Source: Bacteroidota bacterium
GTDB taxonomy: Bacteria; Bacteroidota; Ignavibacteria; Kapaibacteriales; UBA2268
Length of the DNA: 64,000 nucleotides
NCBI GenBank assembly: GCA_021780815.1
Contig: JAJXYC010000015.1
Span: 273,796 to 337,795, forward strand
Reading direction: 5' to 3'
In this document: positions 1-7,917 of the stretch, piece by piece
Layout of the letters: every line of letters begins with the position of its first letter
Numbering within the stretch: the first letter of the stretch is position 1
Position numbers and translations under genes: made by a program
Notes under the pieces: model-generated
Seen by the model: only the letters and a program-made list of their open reading frames with translations
Database searches by the model: none
Told to the model about the DNA's origin: nothing

Positions 1-804
1 ATCTTGCATCAATAAACCTGCTTTTTCAATTGTGTCTTTAACCAATTGCGGAACATAAGTTAAAGCATACTCATACAGTTTCCGCCCTTTCATCTTTAAA
101 TACAACCTGTTGTTTGGTAAATTTGGATTATATGATTTACCCATCGTAAGCAAATCAATATAATTTTTAGTGTCAGTTCTTGTTTTATGAGAAAGAATAC
201 CAACAGGTTCTTCACTTTGAACACCTTCAAGAATAACAGCACCAGAACCATCAGAATAAATCATACTGTCGATATCGTGTGGGTCTGATACTCTGGATAG
301 CGATTCTGCACCAATAACCAGAACTTTTTTTGCATCGCCTGATTTAATATAATAATCAGATTGAATTACGGCTTGTAACCAACCAGGACATCCAAAAGGC
401 AAATCATAAGCAACTGTATAAGGATTTTCTATACCTAATTTTGCTTTGATTCTTGAAGCAATTGTTGGAACTAAATCCGAATAAGGCATCTCGTTTGTTA
501 CATCGCCAAAATTATGTGCAACAATTATATAATCAAGAGTTTCCTTGTCAATCTGTTTATATTCCAAAGCCTGCAATGCCGCATAATAGCCAATATCAGA
601 AGTAACTTCGCTATCTTGAACATAACGCCTTTCTTGAATTGTCGTAATTTCTTGCAACTTATTTATGATTTCACTGTTGTCTTTATGAAATTTGTTCCCA
701 TCAGCATCGTAAAATTCATTGTGAAAGAAGTCTATATTTTTTACTACAACTGGTGGGATGTAACTTCCTGTTGAGGTTATTACTGAATAGATTTGTTTAG
801 ACAT
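1..804 (-). CDS. 3-oxoacyl-ACP synthase III (FabH-like), C-terminal part truncated by window edge
   Basis: The minus-strand reading frame starts at the ATG complementary to 802-804. The N-terminus MSKQIYSVITSTGSYIPPVVVKN and an FGCPGW active-site-Cys-like motif match the KAS III family. No stop codon occurs before the window start. Confidence 0.65.
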   Translation of the reverse strand, partial: MSKQIYSVITSTGSYIPPVVVKNIDFFHNEFYDADGNKFHKDNSEIINKLQEITTIQERRYVQDSEVTSDIGYYAALQALEYKQIDKETLDYIIVAHNFGDVTNEMPYSDLVPTIASRIKAKLGIENPYTVAYDLPFGCPGWLQAVIQSDYYIKSGDAKKVLVIGAESLSRVSDPHDIDSMIYSDGSGAVILEGVQSEEPVGILSHKTRTDTKNYIDLLTMGKSYNPNLPNNRLYLKMKGRKLYEYALTYVPQLVKDTIEKAGLLMQD

Positions 805-910
805 AATTTTTTTTTGTAATTATATAAAATACAAAATTACAGAAAAAAATAATCATAACCACTTAATTAAAAATAGGACAAAAACAAAAAAATCAGATAA
901 TGTAAAAGAG

Positions 911-1258
911 TTAATATTCGATTTGAGTGTGTAAAGCAATTTCTTCCAGAATAGAACTAACTTTGAGACACTCTAATAATTCGCCTTCGAACACAATTGC
1001 TTTTCCATTATTATGTACTGACCAAGCAATTGATTCTGCTTGTTGAGAATCGCAATTGATTGCCTTCATAAGTTGTAAAATTACTTCATCAAAGGTATGC
1101 CAATCATCATTAAATAATATTACTTTTGCAGGAAGAGTAACATTGCTTTCAACAATTATTTCAGGATTCTCTTCTGGCGAAGGTCCAAGAGCTAAATTGA
1201 TATTTAATCTTTGATTATTTGCTGGAATAAATATATCTTTGGAATTACTAAATTTCAT
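911..1258 (-). CDS. clpS: ATP-dependent Clp protease adaptor ClpS
   Basis: The 115-aa product carries the ClpS core motifs VILFNDDWHTFDEVI and AWSVHNNGKAIV. Its size is typical of the family. Confidence 0.8.
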   Translation of the reverse strand: MKFSNSKDIFIPANNQRLNINLALGPSPEENPEIIVESNVTLPAKVILFNDDWHTFDEVILQLMKAINCDSQQAESIAWSVHNNGKAIVFEGELLECLKVSSILEEIALHTQIEY

Positions 1259-1315
1259 AATTAATTTTAAAGAATTAAACTAAAATTTTTCAAAATTAAG
1301 AAACAATCCTTAAAT

Positions 1316-2737
1316 TTGAATTTATTTAATTTAAAAAATCAAAAAAAGACTTTGATACAAATTTCAACAATCATAATTATACTACTTCATCTTGCTGATT
1401 ATACATATATGTTTCAGTTATTTTCTATCGCCGGCTATGGTTTTACCTTCACTGATTTAATGTTTGTCATAGCTTATTTATCTGTTGCTTATCAATTCTT
1501 TGTGCAAAAAAGAGTTTTTACCTTTCTTGAAACCAAAGTATTATATTCCATAATACTATTAACTTTGTCTTTTATTCTTTCAGCCATAGGTCTAATGACT
1601 TGGGGAAATGATGCTAGTCTAATTCAATATTTTAAAACATTATCCCATTTTATTTATGTATCTTTATGGGGAGTATTTCTACTCGGTAGCGAAATCAAAC
1701 CTGATGCATATTTTAAATTAATTAGAGTGATACTTGTAGCTTCATTGCTCATCAATATATATGCTATTTATCAACTTTTTGCAAGAATTTACGATTTACC
1801 ATTAGCTTATATTCAAATATCAAATCAGCAATTTTTAACTCGTGGATTTGACAAAGAATTGGGCGAGGCTAATCAAATTGTATTGAAATTTGAAAATTTT
1901 TATAGAGCAACATCTATTTTTTCAGAACCTTCAGCACTTGCTTCATTTAATCTAATGAATGTTATCTTTCTTATCGTCCCAAAAGCTAGCAAAGTCAAGC
2001 CATTTATTCAAAAGAATTGGTTGAATAATTTAATTTTGATTTTTGTATTAATTGCTTTGATGCTTTCTTTTTCTTTAACTGGTCTATCTTTAATTAGTGT
2101 TTTCCTAATCTCTTTAATCGTTATAAATAAAATTAATATTACTAAAATTATCAAAAATTTTATAATTTTCGCAGTACTTCTTATTGTTGTCGACCAAATA
2201 GTAAGCAATTATACTAATATTAGTGTTCTCAATTTATTTTATCAAAGAGTAGAAGGTTTAATTGCAAATTCTCCCCAAAAAGGTGAAATGGTTGTTGGCG
2301 AATCTGCCCCTGATAGAATTGCCTCAATCAAAAATGCTATAACTTTATATAAAGAATCTCCAATTTTTGGTATTGGCTTAGGCAATACATATTTTCATCC
2401 TAAATCTACTGCAAGATTCGCTCAATCTGCTTTTTTTGGTGTTTTATCCGAAGCAGGTATAATCGGTGCTATTGCACTAATATTTTTCTATTTTAATAGT
2501 TTTAGAGGAAGTTTATTTGTTCATTATGAAACTTTTAATACACAAGCATTTTCTCCTGAATTAGCTACAATGCAAACTTTGCCTATCTTTATTCTTATTC
2601 TCACTATTGTGAGTGGTATATTGACAAGCGATACATTAATTACAACTTCGTATTGGAGTACTTTTGGTATTTTTGCAAGTACTTATAAATCTACCTTATT
2701 ATTAAAAAACAGGAACAGTCTTTCGGCTTCTTCTTAA
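1316..2737 (+). CDS. O-antigen ligase (Wzy_C) family polytopic membrane protein; start uncertain (TTG at 1316, first ATG at 1409)
   Basis: The product has more than 10 predicted TM helices. A periplasmic loop contains FGIGLGNTYFHPKSTARFAQSAFFGVLSEAGIIGAIAL, which resembles the Wzy_C ligase loop. Confidence 0.5.
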   Translation: MNLFNLKNQKKTLIQISTIIIILLHLADYTYMFQLFSIAGYGFTFTDLMFVIAYLSVAYQFFVQKRVFTFLETKVLYSIILLTLSFILSAIGLMTWGNDASLIQYFKTLSHFIYVSLWGVFLLGSEIKPDAYFKLIRVILVASLLINIYAIYQLFARIYDLPLAYIQISNQQFLTRGFDKELGEANQIVLKFENFYRATSIFSEPSALASFNLMNVIFLIVPKASKVKPFIQKNWLNNLILIFVLIALMLSFSLTGLSLISVFLISLIVINKINITKIIKNFIIFAVLLIVVDQIVSNYTNISVLNLFYQRVEGLIANSPQKGEMVVGESAPDRIASIKNAITLYKESPIFGIGLGNTYFHPKSTARFAQSAFFGVLSEAGIIGAIALIFFYFNSFRGSLFVHYETFNTQAFSPELATMQTLPIFILILTIVSGILTSDTLITTSYWSTFGIFASTYKSTLLLKNRNSLSASS

Positions 2738-2772
2738 AGCCTTCAACTTGAAGTCTTCTTAACATATTTTTT

Positions 2773-3215
2773 TACTACAAAAAAAATTTTAGGGTTAGAT
2801 GTAACTTTTTTCCTAAAAAATACTCTTATATATTTAAAAGGGTATTTTCTGAGTTCTTTGAATTTTGTAAAGATTTTTACTACAAAAAAAATTTTAGGGT
2901 CAGATGTAACTTTTTTCCTAAAAAATACTCTTATATATTTAAAAGGGTATTTTCTGAGTTCTTTGAATTTTGTAAAGATTTTTACTACAAAAAAAATTTA
3001 GGGTTAGATGTAACTTTTTTCCTAAAAAATACTCTTATATATTTAAAAGGGTATTTTCTGAGTTCTTTGAATTTTGTAAAGATTTTTACTACAAAAAAAA
3101 TTTTAGGGTTAGATGTAACTTTTTTCCTAAAAAATACTCTTATATATTTAAAAGGGTATTTTCTGAGTTCTTTGAATTTTGTAAAGGTTTTTACTACAAA
3201 AAAAAATAATAACTT
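2773..3215. repeat. Intergenic tandem repeat, 105-bp unit x about 4.2 near-identical copies
   Basis: The unit tactacaaaaaaaattttagggttagatgtaacttttttcctaaaaaatactcttatatatttaaaagggtattttctgagttctttgaattttgtaaagattttt begins at 2773, 2878, 2983, 3087 and 3192. Copies differ only by a few SNPs or indels. Each unit contains the imperfect inverted repeat aatactctt-N9-aagggtatt. Confidence 0.9.
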
Positions 3216-3411
3216 TATATTTTTTTTAATAAAAAAATGTCTATACAATTAATCAAATCAATTAATAAAATGTAGTAGTAAAAAATGTAGTAAAAATAGT
3301 TCATAGATTTGTTTATTTCAAAAATAATTCTTAATATTAAAGTTTAGGAAAATGCAAAATGCAAAAAACTAAATGTAAAATAAATAATTGTAATAATTAA
3401 GAGGTGATATT

Positions 3412-6400
3412 ATGTTTAAAAGACTTTACTACTTTGTAGTAAGTGTTGTAGCACTGGTAATGGTGGTAAGTGCTACGCAAGCACAACAGTTAGACATCAA
3501 CAAGATAAAGGAACAACTTCCTAAATTGCTTGGTGCCAACAATCAAGGCACAGAATTTGTGTTCGGTTTCCACCCTGCTTGGGAAGAAGTTGGACCAAAT
3601 AATGCGTTAAAAATTTATGTTTCATCAGGTGTTGCAACCGAAGTAAGGTTATACATACCTTATTTTAGTTCAGATCCTTTATATGTAAAAACTACAATAC
3701 CAAATGATGTAATTGAATTTAGTCTTTTACCTGCTACTGGACAACCGTATTCACGTGGAGCTGGTGGATTGGTTTCAACTTTGCAGCCAACCCAAGTATG
3801 GAAAGGTCGTGGAATTATTATAACAGCAGACGCTCCTATAATCTGTTATGGTGTAACACGTTATCAATATACGTCAGATGGCTTTCTTGCTATTCCAACT
3901 CAAGCACTTAGTAAGACATATATAATTTCTGCATATAGGGAAACAGCAGATTTTACATCACAGTCACTTACCCCTTACGGTGATATCATTGGAGTTTACG
4001 ACAATACAAAAGTAAGCTTTTCTATCGGTGGCAATAATAATACTTGGGTGAGAGATTTAAATCAAAAGAAATGGAGACCAACTCAAATTATGCAAGCAGT
4101 GATAAATAGAGGAGATTTTTGGTTGGTGGCTTCAGAAGGAGCACAATCAGATTTAGGCGGGAGTTATGTCCAAGCAAACAAGCCAATTTCTGTTTTATCA
4201 GGTAGCCACTGTGCTTATATCCCAACAGCAGTTTCGGCTTGCGATTTTATTAGTGAAGCAGAAATGCCGATACAAGCATGGGGTAAAAAATTATATATCA
4301 CACCAATATATGGCAGAAAAAACGGCTCTGTCTGTCGATTTTTTGCAAAAGAACCAAATACTACATTTAAAAGAGATGGTGTTGAGTTCTTGCAATTATT
4401 TGCAAATTGGGGAGTAGAAGGTGATGGTTGGTTGGAAAAAAGAAGTGACCCTGAAACAGGTTCTAACAAACCAGCTGTTATTACTGCGGATAAGCCAATT
4501 AATGTAGTTCAATATAATCCTGGTCAAAGCGATGATGGTGTTCCTTCCGATCCATTCCAATTAATGCTCACTCCTTATGAACAATTCCAGCATGAAATTA
4601 TCTTTAATACCCCAGGTATTCGTGGAGGTTATGGATTTCCTGTAAATTATATAAACGTAGTTTATCAATCAGATTCCACAGGCCAAATTCCAGACGATTT
4701 AATGTTTGGTGAAGTTGATGCTACACATCAAACAGTTTGGACAAAAGTTAAAGACAAAAGTTCTGCTCCTGGTTTAATGTTTAATGATCCTGACCAAATT
4801 GGTAAAAAAGAACAATTCTTTTCAAAAACTATTCAATTGATGTATGATGGAGTTTATAGATTACAATGCAATAGTCAAAAAATAGCAGCTTATTCTTACG
4901 GATTTGGCAATTACGATTCTTACGGCGAGCCAACCTCTGTTGCACTTGCTGATTTATCCAAACCCGATACAGTTGCTCCAGTGCCATATTACCATATTTA
5001 TTGCGATGGAAGTACTTTTGATAAAAATGGTAAAAATTCAGCTTATGTAACAGATATGCCAGATGATGATAGCATTCGTTCAAATATGTCTTTAATTATA
5101 TTTGACAGAAATAATAGCTATAACTATATTTTCAGTAATAATGATTTTATGCCAGGAGATGATAGAACTGTAAAATGGTCATTAAAAACAATTAACCCAT
5201 CACAAGATGCTCATGCAGTTATAACTTTTGCAGACAGAGCTGGAAATGATACAACAATAGTAATTGATTATTGGGCTATTAAATTATCTATTACTCCAAG
5301 CAATGTTTACTATGGAAATTTAAAAATTGGCGACCAAGTTACTAAAACTTTTGTAATTAAAAACGAATCAAAGACAAGTCCTGCATATTTACAAGAAGTC
5401 TCATTGCAAACTTTTAGAGAAAGTTTAGCTTCGCAAGGATTTAAACTTAGCTATAACTTTGATATTAATCAACCTTTATTACCACAAGATACAAGAACAT
5501 TTACAATTACATTTACAGCACCATCAGAAGGCGAATTCAAAGATTCTGTTGGCGTTGGCGATACCTGCTTCTATCAATATAAAGCATTGGTTAGAGCAAG
5601 TGTAGGAACTCCAATTATTGAAGTATCTGATGTCGATTTTGGTAAAAGAACAGTAGGTGTTCAAACTACTCCATTAATTGCAACTATTACAAATAATGGA
5701 ACAACTTCACTTGCAATTACGGGTTACACAAATAATACATTAAGTGTATTTACAAACGATTTACCAACCATTACTCCTGATAATCCATTAATTATTGATA
5801 AAGGTGGACAATATCAATTCCAAGTATTCTTTAAGCCTGACGCTGTCAAAAAATATTTAGACTCAATTGTCTTCCAAAGCGATGCAGGAACTAACATTGA
5901 TAATGTATGTATGATTCAAGGTGAAGGAATTGAGCCACAGTTACAAGCAACAGGTGATGATTGGGGACGTCGTAGAGCTCATTTAGCAAAATATGATACT
6001 TACCCTTATTATAAATTTACACCATACCCTGCACCAACAGGAGCTATTGTTCTTTCTAATCCAGGTAGTAAAGAAGTAACTATCAATAAAATTGACATCA
6101 TTCAAGATGTACAAGGTGAAGCTTTTGAAATTAATGTAGATGGTACATTACAACCATTGAAAAATTACGTTAATAGCATCGGTCAAATCAAAGATGTATC
6201 TGGTCAAACAATTACAGTAATACCTGCTGGTGGCTCTCGTACAATTCCTGTATTCTTCCACCCGAGAGCAGAAGGCCAATATACATTAGAAATCCAATAT
6301 GAAAGTGATGCTACTGATACTGTTACTTCAACATTAACAGGTATTGGAATTTATCCAAAAATTACTACTACTGATGTTGATTTTGGAACAAAAGTTATTG

Positions 6401-7917
6401 GTGAAGCACCTGTAACTAAAACAGTACGTTTTACAAATGAAACATGGGATTATCAAGATTCTTTAGTATTACAAGGATTAGATATTCAACCGAATGGTTC
6501 TATTAGCCCTGTGTTAGCTACTCCAGGCACTGAAGGATTTAGTTATGACAGTAAAAATATTGCTTTTGGATTTACTGGAATAGTTAATTTCCCTGTTACA
6601 TTACTACCAGGCGATTATATTGAAGTTACTGGTAATTTTGCCGCTGTTAAAACAGGTAATGCTGCTGGTAATATGACAAGTATTAGTGATGCTGATGTTG
6701 ATGTCACTTCTCATTGGACAGGCTTCGGTATTGCTGAATCTCTTGTTTTAAATCCAGGCAATGAACCATTCTTATGCTACAATACATTTGAAGATATTAC
6801 CTACACTTTGGTAAATAATGGCTCAAGCGATATTACAATTCCTGCTAATTCGGTTACCATATTAAATGATGCTGATAATTCATTCTCTTTAATTAGTGTT
6901 ACACGTGCTGATGGTTCTACAGTTGACTTTACTCAAGACTTCAAAATTGCAAAAGGTGAAACACTTACAATTACTGTTCGTTTCAGTCCATCTGCTAAAA
7001 CAAGCAACAATACAGAAGAATTACATCAAGCAACATTGCAAGTAAAAACTTTGGCTGTAACTCCTGCATTACAAACGTTGCAAGTTCCTGTTAAAGGTAG
7101 AGCAATACATTATACAAGAACGTCTGAATCTAAAATTAATGGTGAAAATCAAGTCATTGTTAATCCAGGACAAGATGTGTCTAAACAGCCTATTTCTTAT
7201 AGCATATACCTTACTCAAGGTGCTCAATTAGATTTAGCTAACCCAACTGAATTTACAGTTACTGTACAATACGAAAAGAACTTCTTAGCTATACGTAATA
7301 ATAATGACAAATATATGATTAGCGTGGGAAGTGATTTACCTGCAGATTGGATTGTTCAAGATTACAACTTAGCATTAGATAAAACAACTAACATTGAAAC
7401 TGTTACTATTCATTTGACTGGTTCTACTCCATTCAAGAGCTCAGCACGTTCTCAAATAGTAAAAATTGAATTCTTATCCTTCTTGCCTTGGACTTCCGAT
7501 AATGGACAAATGGTTGTGAAAGGAAAAACAGTGCAAATTAATCATTCAATAACTACAAACGAACAATGTGTTGACGTAATTGACCCAGTTCCAGTAAAAG
7601 CAACATTAACAGAAACTTGTATGGATCCTGTTCGTCAAATTGTTATTAGTGCTTCTGATTACAATTTAGGTACAGTTAATCCTAATCCAGTAGGAGCTAC
7701 TGGTACAGATATTCCTTTCAGCATCGCTTTCGATGGTTATGTTGAAATCCGTATCGTTAATGCCGCCGGTGAAGTTGTTAATACTCCAATTGCACAAAAT
7801 ATGAAAGCTGGTTCTTATTCCGTAAGAATTCCTGCTGACTTACCAAATGGAGCATATTTCCTTGAAATGACTTCTGGTGAATATAAACAATTACGTAAAT
7901 TTACAGTTGCTAAATAA
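3412..7917 (+). CDS. Large (1501 aa) secreted multi-Ig-like-domain surface protein with T9SS C-terminal sorting domain
   Basis: The product has a signal peptide (MFKRLYYFVVSVVALVMVVSATQAQQ) and a strong SD-like aagaggtga upstream. Reiterated DVDFG-K/T-x-VG...TITN-G/E segments resemble choice-of-anchor-D/ASH-type modules. The C-terminus (GAYFLEMTSGEYKQLRKFTVAK) is typical of a Por/T9SS CTD. Confidence 0.8.
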   Translation: MFKRLYYFVVSVVALVMVVSATQAQQLDINKIKEQLPKLLGANNQGTEFVFGFHPAWEEVGPNNALKIYVSSGVATEVRLYIPYFSSDPLYVKTTIPNDVIEFSLLPATGQPYSRGAGGLVSTLQPTQVWKGRGIIITADAPIICYGVTRYQYTSDGFLAIPTQALSKTYIISAYRETADFTSQSLTPYGDIIGVYDNTKVSFSIGGNNNTWVRDLNQKKWRPTQIMQAVINRGDFWLVASEGAQSDLGGSYVQANKPISVLSGSHCAYIPTAVSACDFISEAEMPIQAWGKKLYITPIYGRKNGSVCRFFAKEPNTTFKRDGVEFLQLFANWGVEGDGWLEKRSDPETGSNKPAVITADKPINVVQYNPGQSDDGVPSDPFQLMLTPYEQFQHEIIFNTPGIRGGYGFPVNYINVVYQSDSTGQIPDDLMFGEVDATHQTVWTKVKDKSSAPGLMFNDPDQIGKKEQFFSKTIQLMYDGVYRLQCNSQKIAAYSYGFGNYDSYGEPTSVALADLSKPDTVAPVPYYHIYCDGSTFDKNGKNSAYVTDMPDDDSIRSNMSLIIFDRNNSYNYIFSNNDFMPGDDRTVKWSLKTINPSQDAHAVITFADRAGNDTTIVIDYWAIKLSITPSNVYYGNLKIGDQVTKTFVIKNESKTSPAYLQEVSLQTFRESLASQGFKLSYNFDINQPLLPQDTRTFTITFTAPSEGEFKDSVGVGDTCFYQYKALVRASVGTPIIEVSDVDFGKRTVGVQTTPLIATITNNGTTSLAITGYTNNTLSVFTNDLPTITPDNPLIIDKGGQYQFQVFFKPDAVKKYLDSIVFQSDAGTNIDNVCMIQGEGIEPQLQATGDDWGRRRAHLAKYDTYPYYKFTPYPAPTGAIVLSNPGSKEVTINKIDIIQDVQGEAFEINVDGTLQPLKNYVNSIGQIKDVSGQTITVIPAGGSRTIPVFFHPRAEGQYTLEIQYESDATDTVTSTLTGIGIYPKITTTDVDFGTKVIGEAPVTKTVRFTNETWDYQDSLVLQGLDIQPNGSISPVLATPGTEGFSYDSKNIAFGFTGIVNFPVTLLPGDYIEVTGNFAAVKTGNAAGNMTSISDADVDVTSHWTGFGIAESLVLNPGNEPFLCYNTFEDITYTLVNNGSSDITIPANSVTILNDADNSFSLISVTRADGSTVDFTQDFKIAKGETLTITVRFSPSAKTSNNTEELHQATLQVKTLAVTPALQTLQVPVKGRAIHYTRTSESKINGENQVIVNPGQDVSKQPISYSIYLTQGAQLDLANPTEFTVTVQYEKNFLAIRNNNDKYMISVGSDLPADWIVQDYNLALDKTTNIETVTIHLTGSTPFKSSARSQIVKIEFLSFLPWTSDNGQMVVKGKTVQINHSITTNEQCVDVIDPVPVKATLTETCMDPVRQIVISASDYNLGTVNPNPVGATGTDIPFSIAFDGYVEIRIVNAAGEVVNTPIAQNMKAGSYSVRIPADLPNGAYFLEMTSGEYKQLRKFTVAK

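Follow-up and report, generated by a model that had tools for sequence, protein, structure and literature searches.

Between the gene for a Wzy_C-family membrane protein and the gene for a surface protein of 1501 amino acids (aa), the 64,000-nucleotide stretch of DNA analysed here (the window), which comes from an uncultured Kapaibacteriota bacterium, contains an array of four near-identical repeats of about 105 bp, followed by a short partial copy. The array is real, it lies at the orthologous gene in three lineages, it evolves concertedly, it derives from conserved upstream DNA and it carries no promoter of its own. With slightly better than even confidence, we interpret it as a copy-number-variable minisatellite that arose from about 105 bp of the gene's distal upstream control region and that probably tunes expression of the downstream gene, the product of which is a predicted type IX secretion system (T9SS) cargo.

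Tandem Repeats Finder (TRF) reports a single strong array in the window, at positions 2769-3205 (period 105, 4.2 copies, 98% matches, 0% indels, score 853); direct listing of the units places its end at 3206 rather than 3205. This agrees with the first-pass annotation of this DNA, which had described a near-perfect fourfold repeat of 105 bp upstream of a surface-protein gene and had placed it at 2773-3215, only a few bases off. The units are as follows.

2769-2873, plus strand: unit u1, 105 nt
2874-2978, plus strand: unit u2, 105 nt, with one T>C change
2979-3082, plus strand: unit u3, 104 nt, with one T missing
3083-3187, plus strand: unit u4, 105 nt, with the last base changed (A>G)
3188-3206, plus strand: terminal partial fifth copy, TTTTTACTACAAAAAAAA(A), 18-19 nt, from the unit listing

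Differences between units are confined to these three places, in u2, u3 and u4. Together with positions 2769-2786, the partial copy forms an 18-nt direct repeat, and the same repeat bounds the single unit of the one-unit alleles described below. A 58-nt core of the unit matched the window four times with at most one mismatch, compared with no match in 100 shuffles. The array occupies 65% of the 674-nt intergenic gap (2738-3411). Each unit holds AATACTCTT, ATATATTTA and AAGGGTATT as well as an A8 tract, and the AT-rich core, imperfect inverted repeat and A-tract that had been noted earlier are found in every unit. By its head-to-tail, near-identical units of at least 10 bp and its non-coding position, co-oriented with the downstream gene, the array has the layout of a bacterial promoter-region variable number tandem repeat (VNTR), or minisatellite.

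Independent contigs were gathered by exact-protein look-up of the 1501-aa and Wzy_C products, and their flanks are identical to the window wherever the two align, for as much as 13.7 kb. Logan contigs are built at k=31. L014 and L015 stop 61 nt past the Wzy_C stop codon, at the last 31-mer with a unique left-flank base, while L003 and L004 start at the first 31-mer that includes the base telling the array exit from an internal junction. Since such a break needs a branch in the de Bruijn graph, these breaks at the array edges require at least two units in SRR17201898, SRR13178628 and SRR13170451. The array is therefore real and not an assembly artefact. Over 10.7 kb, L003 differs from the window once, in the base that closes the final unit (A, where the window has G).

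A second class of contigs carries one unit only. In the MEGAHIT k141 contigs L001/L012 and L013 and in the contig L002, from an NCBI metagenome-assembled genome (MAG), the intergenic gap is 360 nt and the single unit is bounded by the 18-nt direct repeat, compared with 4.2 copies in the window. At k of 119 or more no k-mer recurs within the four-unit array, which is linear in a k=141 graph, so its collapse at k=141 is not expected; moreover, the one-unit contig has 36 141-mers that a four-unit genome cannot supply. We regard the one-unit alleles as probably genuine, and copy-number polymorphism as likely but not proven. If these alleles are true, copy number outpaces point substitution in this clone, with no single-nucleotide polymorphisms over 13.7 kb of flank.

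Arrays also stand upstream of orthologues of the 1501-aa gene in two related lineages. We name the lineages by the protein identity of the orthologue; unit counts for the relatives are lower bounds, because every contig ends in the array or has a 100-N gap there.

89% lineage (L016; L017-L019): at least 3.5 units of 105-106 bp; upstream neighbour a Wzy_C orthologue (92% nucleotide identity)
74% lineage (L020, L021; L006, L022): homologous units of 94-95 bp, at least 4.7 copies; upstream neighbour a VitK2_biosynth gene
68% lineage (L007): no array, the core module present once; upstream neighbour unlike the window's
56-64% lineages (L008-L011): no array, gaps of 229-312 nt; upstream neighbours unlike the window's

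In the 89% lineage, the contig L016, from the Joint Genome Institute (JGI), runs from the Wzy_C orthologue into the array (1-374) and ends inside it; L017-L019, in which the orthologue is 89% identical in protein, begin within the array from the opposite side. In the 74% lineage, two NCBI MAGs hold 2.8 units, 100 N and then about 1 unit (L020, array at 2392-2822) or 1.9 units (L021, array at 2284-2821), and the Logan contigs L006 and L022 likewise break at the array. No array was present in the sequence read or aligned from the four more distant lineages (L007-L011), where the gaps measure 183-312 nt. The Wzy_C gene adjoins the array only in the window lineage and the 89% lineage, and synteny differs throughout L008-L011. 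Since the array persists beside a changed upstream gene, with differing synteny, it belongs to the gene and not to the neighbourhood; the cis-location of the array and its tie to the downstream surface-protein gene, as first suggested, are borne out.

When the units of the window were aligned to those of the 89% lineage, 5-6 differences proved to be fixed in all copies of one lineage, compared with 1-3 differences within a lineage. Such lineage-fixed differences point to homogenisation of the array (concerted evolution) or to its repeated re-amplification. With the one-unit and four-unit alleles between identical flanks, the breaks at the array edges and the concerted evolution in relatives, change of copy number by recombination or slippage, which had been proposed from the repeat itself, is the best reading of the locus.

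Nearly every short-read assembly of the locus, in all three lineages, breaks at the array or holds a 100-N gap. The breaks or gaps fall at 2660-2758 in L020 and 2545-2644 in L021, at the starts of L003, L004, L006, L017-L019 and L022, and at the ends of L014-L016. Breaks as common as these imply that the upstream regions of the 1501-aa gene are systematically missing or unreliable in MAGs.

The sequence elements of the units and of the adjoining DNA are listed below.

2772-2783, 2877-2888, 2982-2993, 3086-3097 and 3191-3202, plus strand: TTACTACAAAAA box, five copies
2798-2843, 2903-2948, 3007-3052 and 3112-3157, plus strand: core module GATGTAACTTTTTTCC-N8-ACTCTTATATATTTAAAAGGGT, four copies, from the unit alignment
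3271-3277 and 3286-3292, plus strand: two proximal TGTAGTA boxes, the reverse complement of the array box
3331-3369, plus strand: leader or proximal block TTAATATTAAAGTTTAGGAAAATGCAAAATGCAAAAAAC, kept in orthologues with as little as 63% protein identity
3426-3442, plus strand: perfect palindrome TTACTAC-TTT-GTAGTAA within signal-peptide codons (YYFVV), combining an eighth heptamer with a TTACTAC half-site (3426-3432)

Each unit of the array holds one conserved TACTACA box and an AT-rich core module, ATGTAAYT6-7CC...ACTCTT(A)TATATTTA, which contains the imperfect palindrome AATACTCTT/AAGGGTATT. The core module is common to the repeat units of all three lineages and to the single-copy upstream region of L007, where it is present once, with TACTACA boxes before it. 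The 74%-lineage unit aligns over most of the window unit, through A8TTT, through RATGTAAY followed by T6-7 and CC, through CACTCTT(A)TATATTTA and through TTCYTTGAWTTTT; it lacks the TACTAC segment, and a single TTACTACAAAAAA box stands after the array instead. By this comparison, the unit derives from the gene's own ancestral distal upstream DNA. The idea that the arrays serve in common to multiply the TACTACA box was considered as well, and is weakened by the 74%-lineage units that are without the box.

At seven orthologous loci, the heptamer TACTACA/TGTAGTA is found 12 times in all within 260 nt upstream, compared with 0.32 expected from the rest of the loci (nominal P 2e-15, the loci not being phylogenetically independent). 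In the window, 7 of the 13 heptamers fall in the 520 nt before the gene, five of them in the array on the plus strand and two reversed at 3271-3292; the latter lie just upstream of, and overlapping, the -33 position of the candidate promoter described below. The palindrome at 3426-3442 uses the rare codon TAC twice (TAC makes up 18% of Tyr codons), and it is kept at the nucleotide level in the window and in the 74% lineage (L006) and nearly so in L007. Given the heptamer that it has in common with the upstream boxes, it may be an intragenic operator. The block at 3331-3369 (TTAATATTAWAGTTTAG...ACAAAATGMAAAAA), 45-80 nt before the ATG, is kept across quite different neighbourhoods and could belong to the promoter or else be a conserved 5′ leader element.

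Unit lengths of 104-106 bp (about 10 turns) and 94-95 bp (about 9 turns) are both near whole multiples of the 10.5-bp helical repeat. It is suggestive, although there are two lengths only, that whole-turn units would keep the modules on one face of the helix. Intrinsically curved DNA was rejected as a description of the array, since periodicity at 10.5 bp is not significant and a peak at 9.5 bp is a harmonic of the repeat.

The array's presumed target is the next gene downstream, which encodes the 1501-aa protein.

3412-7917, plus strand: gene for the 1501-aa surface protein; its domains are IgGFc_binding, choice-of-anchor D, Ig-like and T9SS type A sorting

Its product is a predicted T9SS cargo protein, by the type A sorting domain (TIGR04183, residues 1423-1499, 25.3 bits against a cutoff of 23) and by an N-terminus, MFKRLYYFVVSVVALVMVVSATQAQ, that looks signal-peptide-like by eye. 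Nucleotide identity between the window and the 89% lineage (L017 for 3507-5001) is distributed as a mosaic.

3207-3411, plus strand: proximal upstream region, 205 nt before the ATG, 98.5% identity
3507-5001, plus strand: codons ~32-530 of the gene (IgGFc_binding region), 73-80% identity
Remainder of the 1501-aa gene: 89-96% identity
Wzy_C gene, last 900 nt: 92.4% identity
DoxX gene: 94.9% identity
Next intergenic spacer (1501-aa gene to DoxX): 87.6% identity

Overall, the 1501-aa gene is 87% identical to that of the 89% lineage, compared with 98.5% for the proximal upstream region. The mosaic suggests diversifying selection on the exposed domain or its allelic exchange. Surface proteins under diversifying selection typically combine strictly constant promoter-proximal DNA with an exposed domain that has diversified strongly, and genes of this sort often have contingency repeats; the pattern seen here fits a contingency-type surface gene.

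The model that we favour would run as follows. The first duplication would have come about by misalignment of the two 18-nt direct repeats TTTTTACTACAAAAAAAA that bound the single unit, through replication slippage or unequal recombination. Thereafter, unequal homologous exchange between the 105-bp units would expand, contract and homogenise the array. The number of units would set how many putative upstream protein-binding modules stand before the promoter, all on one face of the helix, and a change in this number would grade or switch expression of an exposed, fast-diversifying surface protein. In this model we infer genuine copy-number polymorphism, the binding of protein to the modules and an effect of copy number on transcription. 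A stronger form of the model, which we think doubtful, holds that, in a clade of Kapaibacteriota, the gene's conserved cis-module was amplified more than once into a selected upstream scaffold of tunable copy number, whose whole-turn units would let an oligomerising regulator or nucleoid protein bind every module on one helical face, with gain or loss of units by recombination then switching or grading expression of the antigen; it would be a minisatellite-based form of phase variation not described in Bacteroidota or the wider Fibrobacterota-Chlorobiota-Bacteroidota (FCB) group.

Several observations weigh against a regulatory minisatellite. First, the one-unit alleles all come from short-read assemblies and their k-mers at k of 99 or less are all present in the four-unit allele, so that a collapse at lower k, carried forward by the assembler, is still possible. 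Second, the TACTACA box is absent from the 74%-lineage repeat unit. Third, the units of the window and the 89% lineage have diverged by about 8%, which is far above the 1.5% of the proximal region and not clearly below the 12% of another intergenic spacer, and which therefore argues that constraint on the unit is modest. Fourth, AA/TT (A-tract) periodicity at 10.5 bp in the array is not significant. Finally, the 56-68% lineages have no array, as a neutral slippage hotspot also predicts.

Such a hotspot is the main rival, and one that we hold possible though not the likelier account: a neutral minisatellite, in an upstream region rich in runs of A and T, with short direct repeats and prone to slippage and recombination, where arrays would come, homogenise and go without any effect on expression. 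The absence of arrays from the distant lineages and the modest constraint on the unit suit it equally well. It also accords with the presence of arrays in three lineages and their absence from four more distant ones, with a unit length and unit boundaries that vary by lineage (94-95 versus 104-106 bp), with a unit far less conserved than the proximal promoter region, and with a unit that has no promoter, RNA structure or coding signal. It accounts less well for the survival or return of arrays at the same gene across lineages that differ by about 12-26% in protein sequence and have changed neighbours, for units that hold upstream parts conserved in single-copy relatives, for two unit lengths that are both near whole helical turns, and for a gene with the profile of a variable surface antigen. 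Homologous arrays at this position in related lineages make a copy-number-variable control region the probable reading.

Where the array lies relative to the promoter bears on a further alternative. In the window, about ten start codons have a perfect TAnnTTTG -7 box 19-40 nt ahead of them, most commonly in the form TAATTTTG. Because such boxes precede many start codons, the organism appears to use Bacteroidota-type promoters. The sole perfect box upstream of the 1501-aa gene is the following.

3304-3311, plus strand: TAGATTTG, candidate core promoter -7 box

The array ends 98 nt upstream of this candidate box and 206 nt upstream of the ATG, and no TAnnTTTG was found inside the array on either strand. 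A search by eye only of 3207-3411 for a sigma-54 promoter gave no GG-N10-GC arrangement.

The first-pass annotation had also offered the array as a reiterated promoter, in which every unit would bear its own promoter and extra units would add starts reading into the gene. This we consider improbable. Each unit does contain two seven-of-eight near-matches to the -7 consensus, TATATTTA and GAATTTTG, the latter to be compared with the organism's common TAATTTTG, and one weak sigma-70-like site (9/12), though on the minus strand. However, many genes of the window are preceded by a perfect TAnnTTTG and the array has none, the GAATTTTG near-match is lost in the units of the 74% lineage, and the gene's only box lies downstream of the array. 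The sigma-70-like sites are not above expectation (9, versus 5.4 ± 2.2 in shuffles), and those of the array units are all on the minus strand, facing away from the gene. In addition, the unit has no significant similarity to the proximal promoter region; derivation of the unit from the proximal promoter, as a ‘spacer promoter’, was accordingly rejected, with a local alignment no better than shuffles (P ~0.26).

Three remaining readings have very little probability. That the array is a mobile or dispersed element clustered here by chance, whether a miniature inverted-repeat transposable element (MITE), an insertion sequence (IS) end or a family akin to repetitive extragenic palindromic (REP) or enterobacterial repetitive intergenic consensus (ERIC) sequences, could draw on the AT-richness of the unit and its imperfect 9-nt palindrome, but is scarcely credible when all four matches in the 64-kb window are array units with no further copy, when a 22-nt core gave one chance match in 185,579 species genomes and matched only the orthologous locus in JGI metagenomes, when a degenerate pattern of 25 bases taken elsewhere in the unit had no match in IMG/VR, and when the unit has no terminal inverted repeats, target-site duplication or nearby transposase and its ends are direct repeats; the MITE or IS membership that the first-pass annotation had named as counting against its proposal was thus looked for, with a negative result. 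An invertible promoter switch, with a segment flipped by a recombinase between the 12-nt inverted repeats ATTTTTACTACA/TGTAGTAAAAAT, would explain why perfect repeats of this kind occur between each unit junction and 3286-3297 and why the TACTACA...TGTAGTA arrangement is partly conserved in orthologues, but is hardly tenable with the -7 box (3304-3311) outside the inverted repeats, one orientation in every independent contig, no adjacent recombinase gene and several orthologues that have direct box copies only.

The third of these, a transcribed product, be it a tandem small RNA, a leader with RNA structure or a K/F-rich repeat peptide, is just as implausible. Both strands contain short open frames (47 and 61 aa on the plus strand, 87 aa on the minus strand), and no intrinsic terminator was detected between the Wzy_C stop and the array (2738-2768), where there is only a weak imperfect hairpin, CTTCAACTTGAAG, so that read-through RNA from the Wzy_C gene could enter and span the array. 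Yet no Rfam family was found at the gathering threshold and no tRNA by ARAGORN, the unit folds no better than shuffles (z -0.3 to -1.2), and in the 89% lineage one pair of the palindrome is lost with no compensating change. The open frames are interrupted by the 104-nt third unit, and the 87-aa product is nowhere a called gene in the collection, in keeping with the earlier opinion that these frames are not genes.

The surroundings of the locus are as follows. The upstream neighbour in the window is the membrane protein gene after which the gap begins.

1316-2737, plus strand: Wzy_C-family membrane protein gene (Pfam Wzy_C, E 4e-9)

Neighbouring genes of the locus include Wzy_C, ClpS, a FabH-like gene (ACP_syn_III family) and DoxX. 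Homologues of the 1501-aa protein number roughly 230; the distant ones bear the labels Kapabacteria, Ignavibacteria or Chlorobi, and one member of the 74% cluster comes from a MAG named Candidatus Kapaibacteriota bacterium. In L007, a minus-strand tRNA-gene-like end (TGCTCTACCAGCTGAGCTAA, 3560-3590) precedes the gene, and the upstream part (1-3357) contains an HTH_17 gene as well as one for a type I restriction subunit; an integrated element may lie next to this locus.

If copy number tunes expression, the array would be the first large-unit promoter-region VNTR contingency switch for a T9SS surface protein in Kapaibacteriota, a candidate phylum related to the Bacteroidota; the literature on T9SS regulation in Kapabacteria yielded nothing specific. 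Unit length and number across the three lineages would then form a natural series for studying how module dosage and helical phasing act on a Bacteroidota-type promoter. The locus also calls for caution in comparisons based on MAGs, and it offers a ready-made strain marker.

Several known systems resemble the array in part. The 60/81-bp repeats of the Xenopus ribosomal DNA (rDNA) spacer are tandem enhancers of a eukaryotic RNA polymerase I system that resemble the promoter and vary in number. The likeness, by analogy only, lies in upstream cis-modules that are amplified and homogenised within a lineage; unlike the Xenopus repeats, the present unit has no significant similarity to the proximal promoter. 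In simple sequence repeat (SSR) contingency loci, such as the 7-bp repeats of H. influenzae hmw1A/hmw2A and the TAAA tract of N. meningitidis nadA, repeat number modulates transcription of an adhesin, and the nadA tract acts through altered regulator binding geometry. The present locus is similar in that repeats precede the promoter of a gene for an adhesin-like surface protein. However, SSR contingency units are 4-7 bp long and change by very fast polymerase slippage, whereas a 105-bp unit changes mainly by homologous misalignment and, unlike at SSR loci, a single 105-bp step brings in a complete set of sites along with 10 turns of the helix. A classical SSR contingency locus was rejected, given a unit of 104-106 bp rather than 1-9 bp and an array that lies outside the promoter spacer and the reading frame. 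Intergenic VNTRs of the mycobacterial interspersed repetitive unit (MIRU) type, with units of about 50-130 bp, are minisatellites that serve in multiple-locus VNTR analysis (MLVA) typing, and MIRUs are dispersed at many loci. The array is like them in its intergenic position, its near-identical copies and its probable change by slippage or unequal recombination; unlike MIRUs, the present unit is found at a single locus and goes with one gene family.

Closest among described systems are the promoter tandem repeats of M. tuberculosis, with units of 57 bp at dop, 58 bp at lpdA and 54-56 bp at cysG and with a copy number that varies between and within near-isogenic populations (PMC12817950). Both systems have head-to-tail units of tens of bp to 100 bp in non-coding DNA just upstream of a gene; in both, copy number differs among near-identical genomes (probably so here) and tends to be hidden by short-read assembly, and graded or phase-variable expression is proposed. 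The M. tuberculosis repeats differ in lying 12-29 bp from the gene and in containing promoter elements, while the present array is promoterless and lies 98 nt upstream of the candidate -7 box. The present unit is, moreover, about twice as long and confined to a single locus, where the array is kept at the orthologous gene in three species-level lineages.

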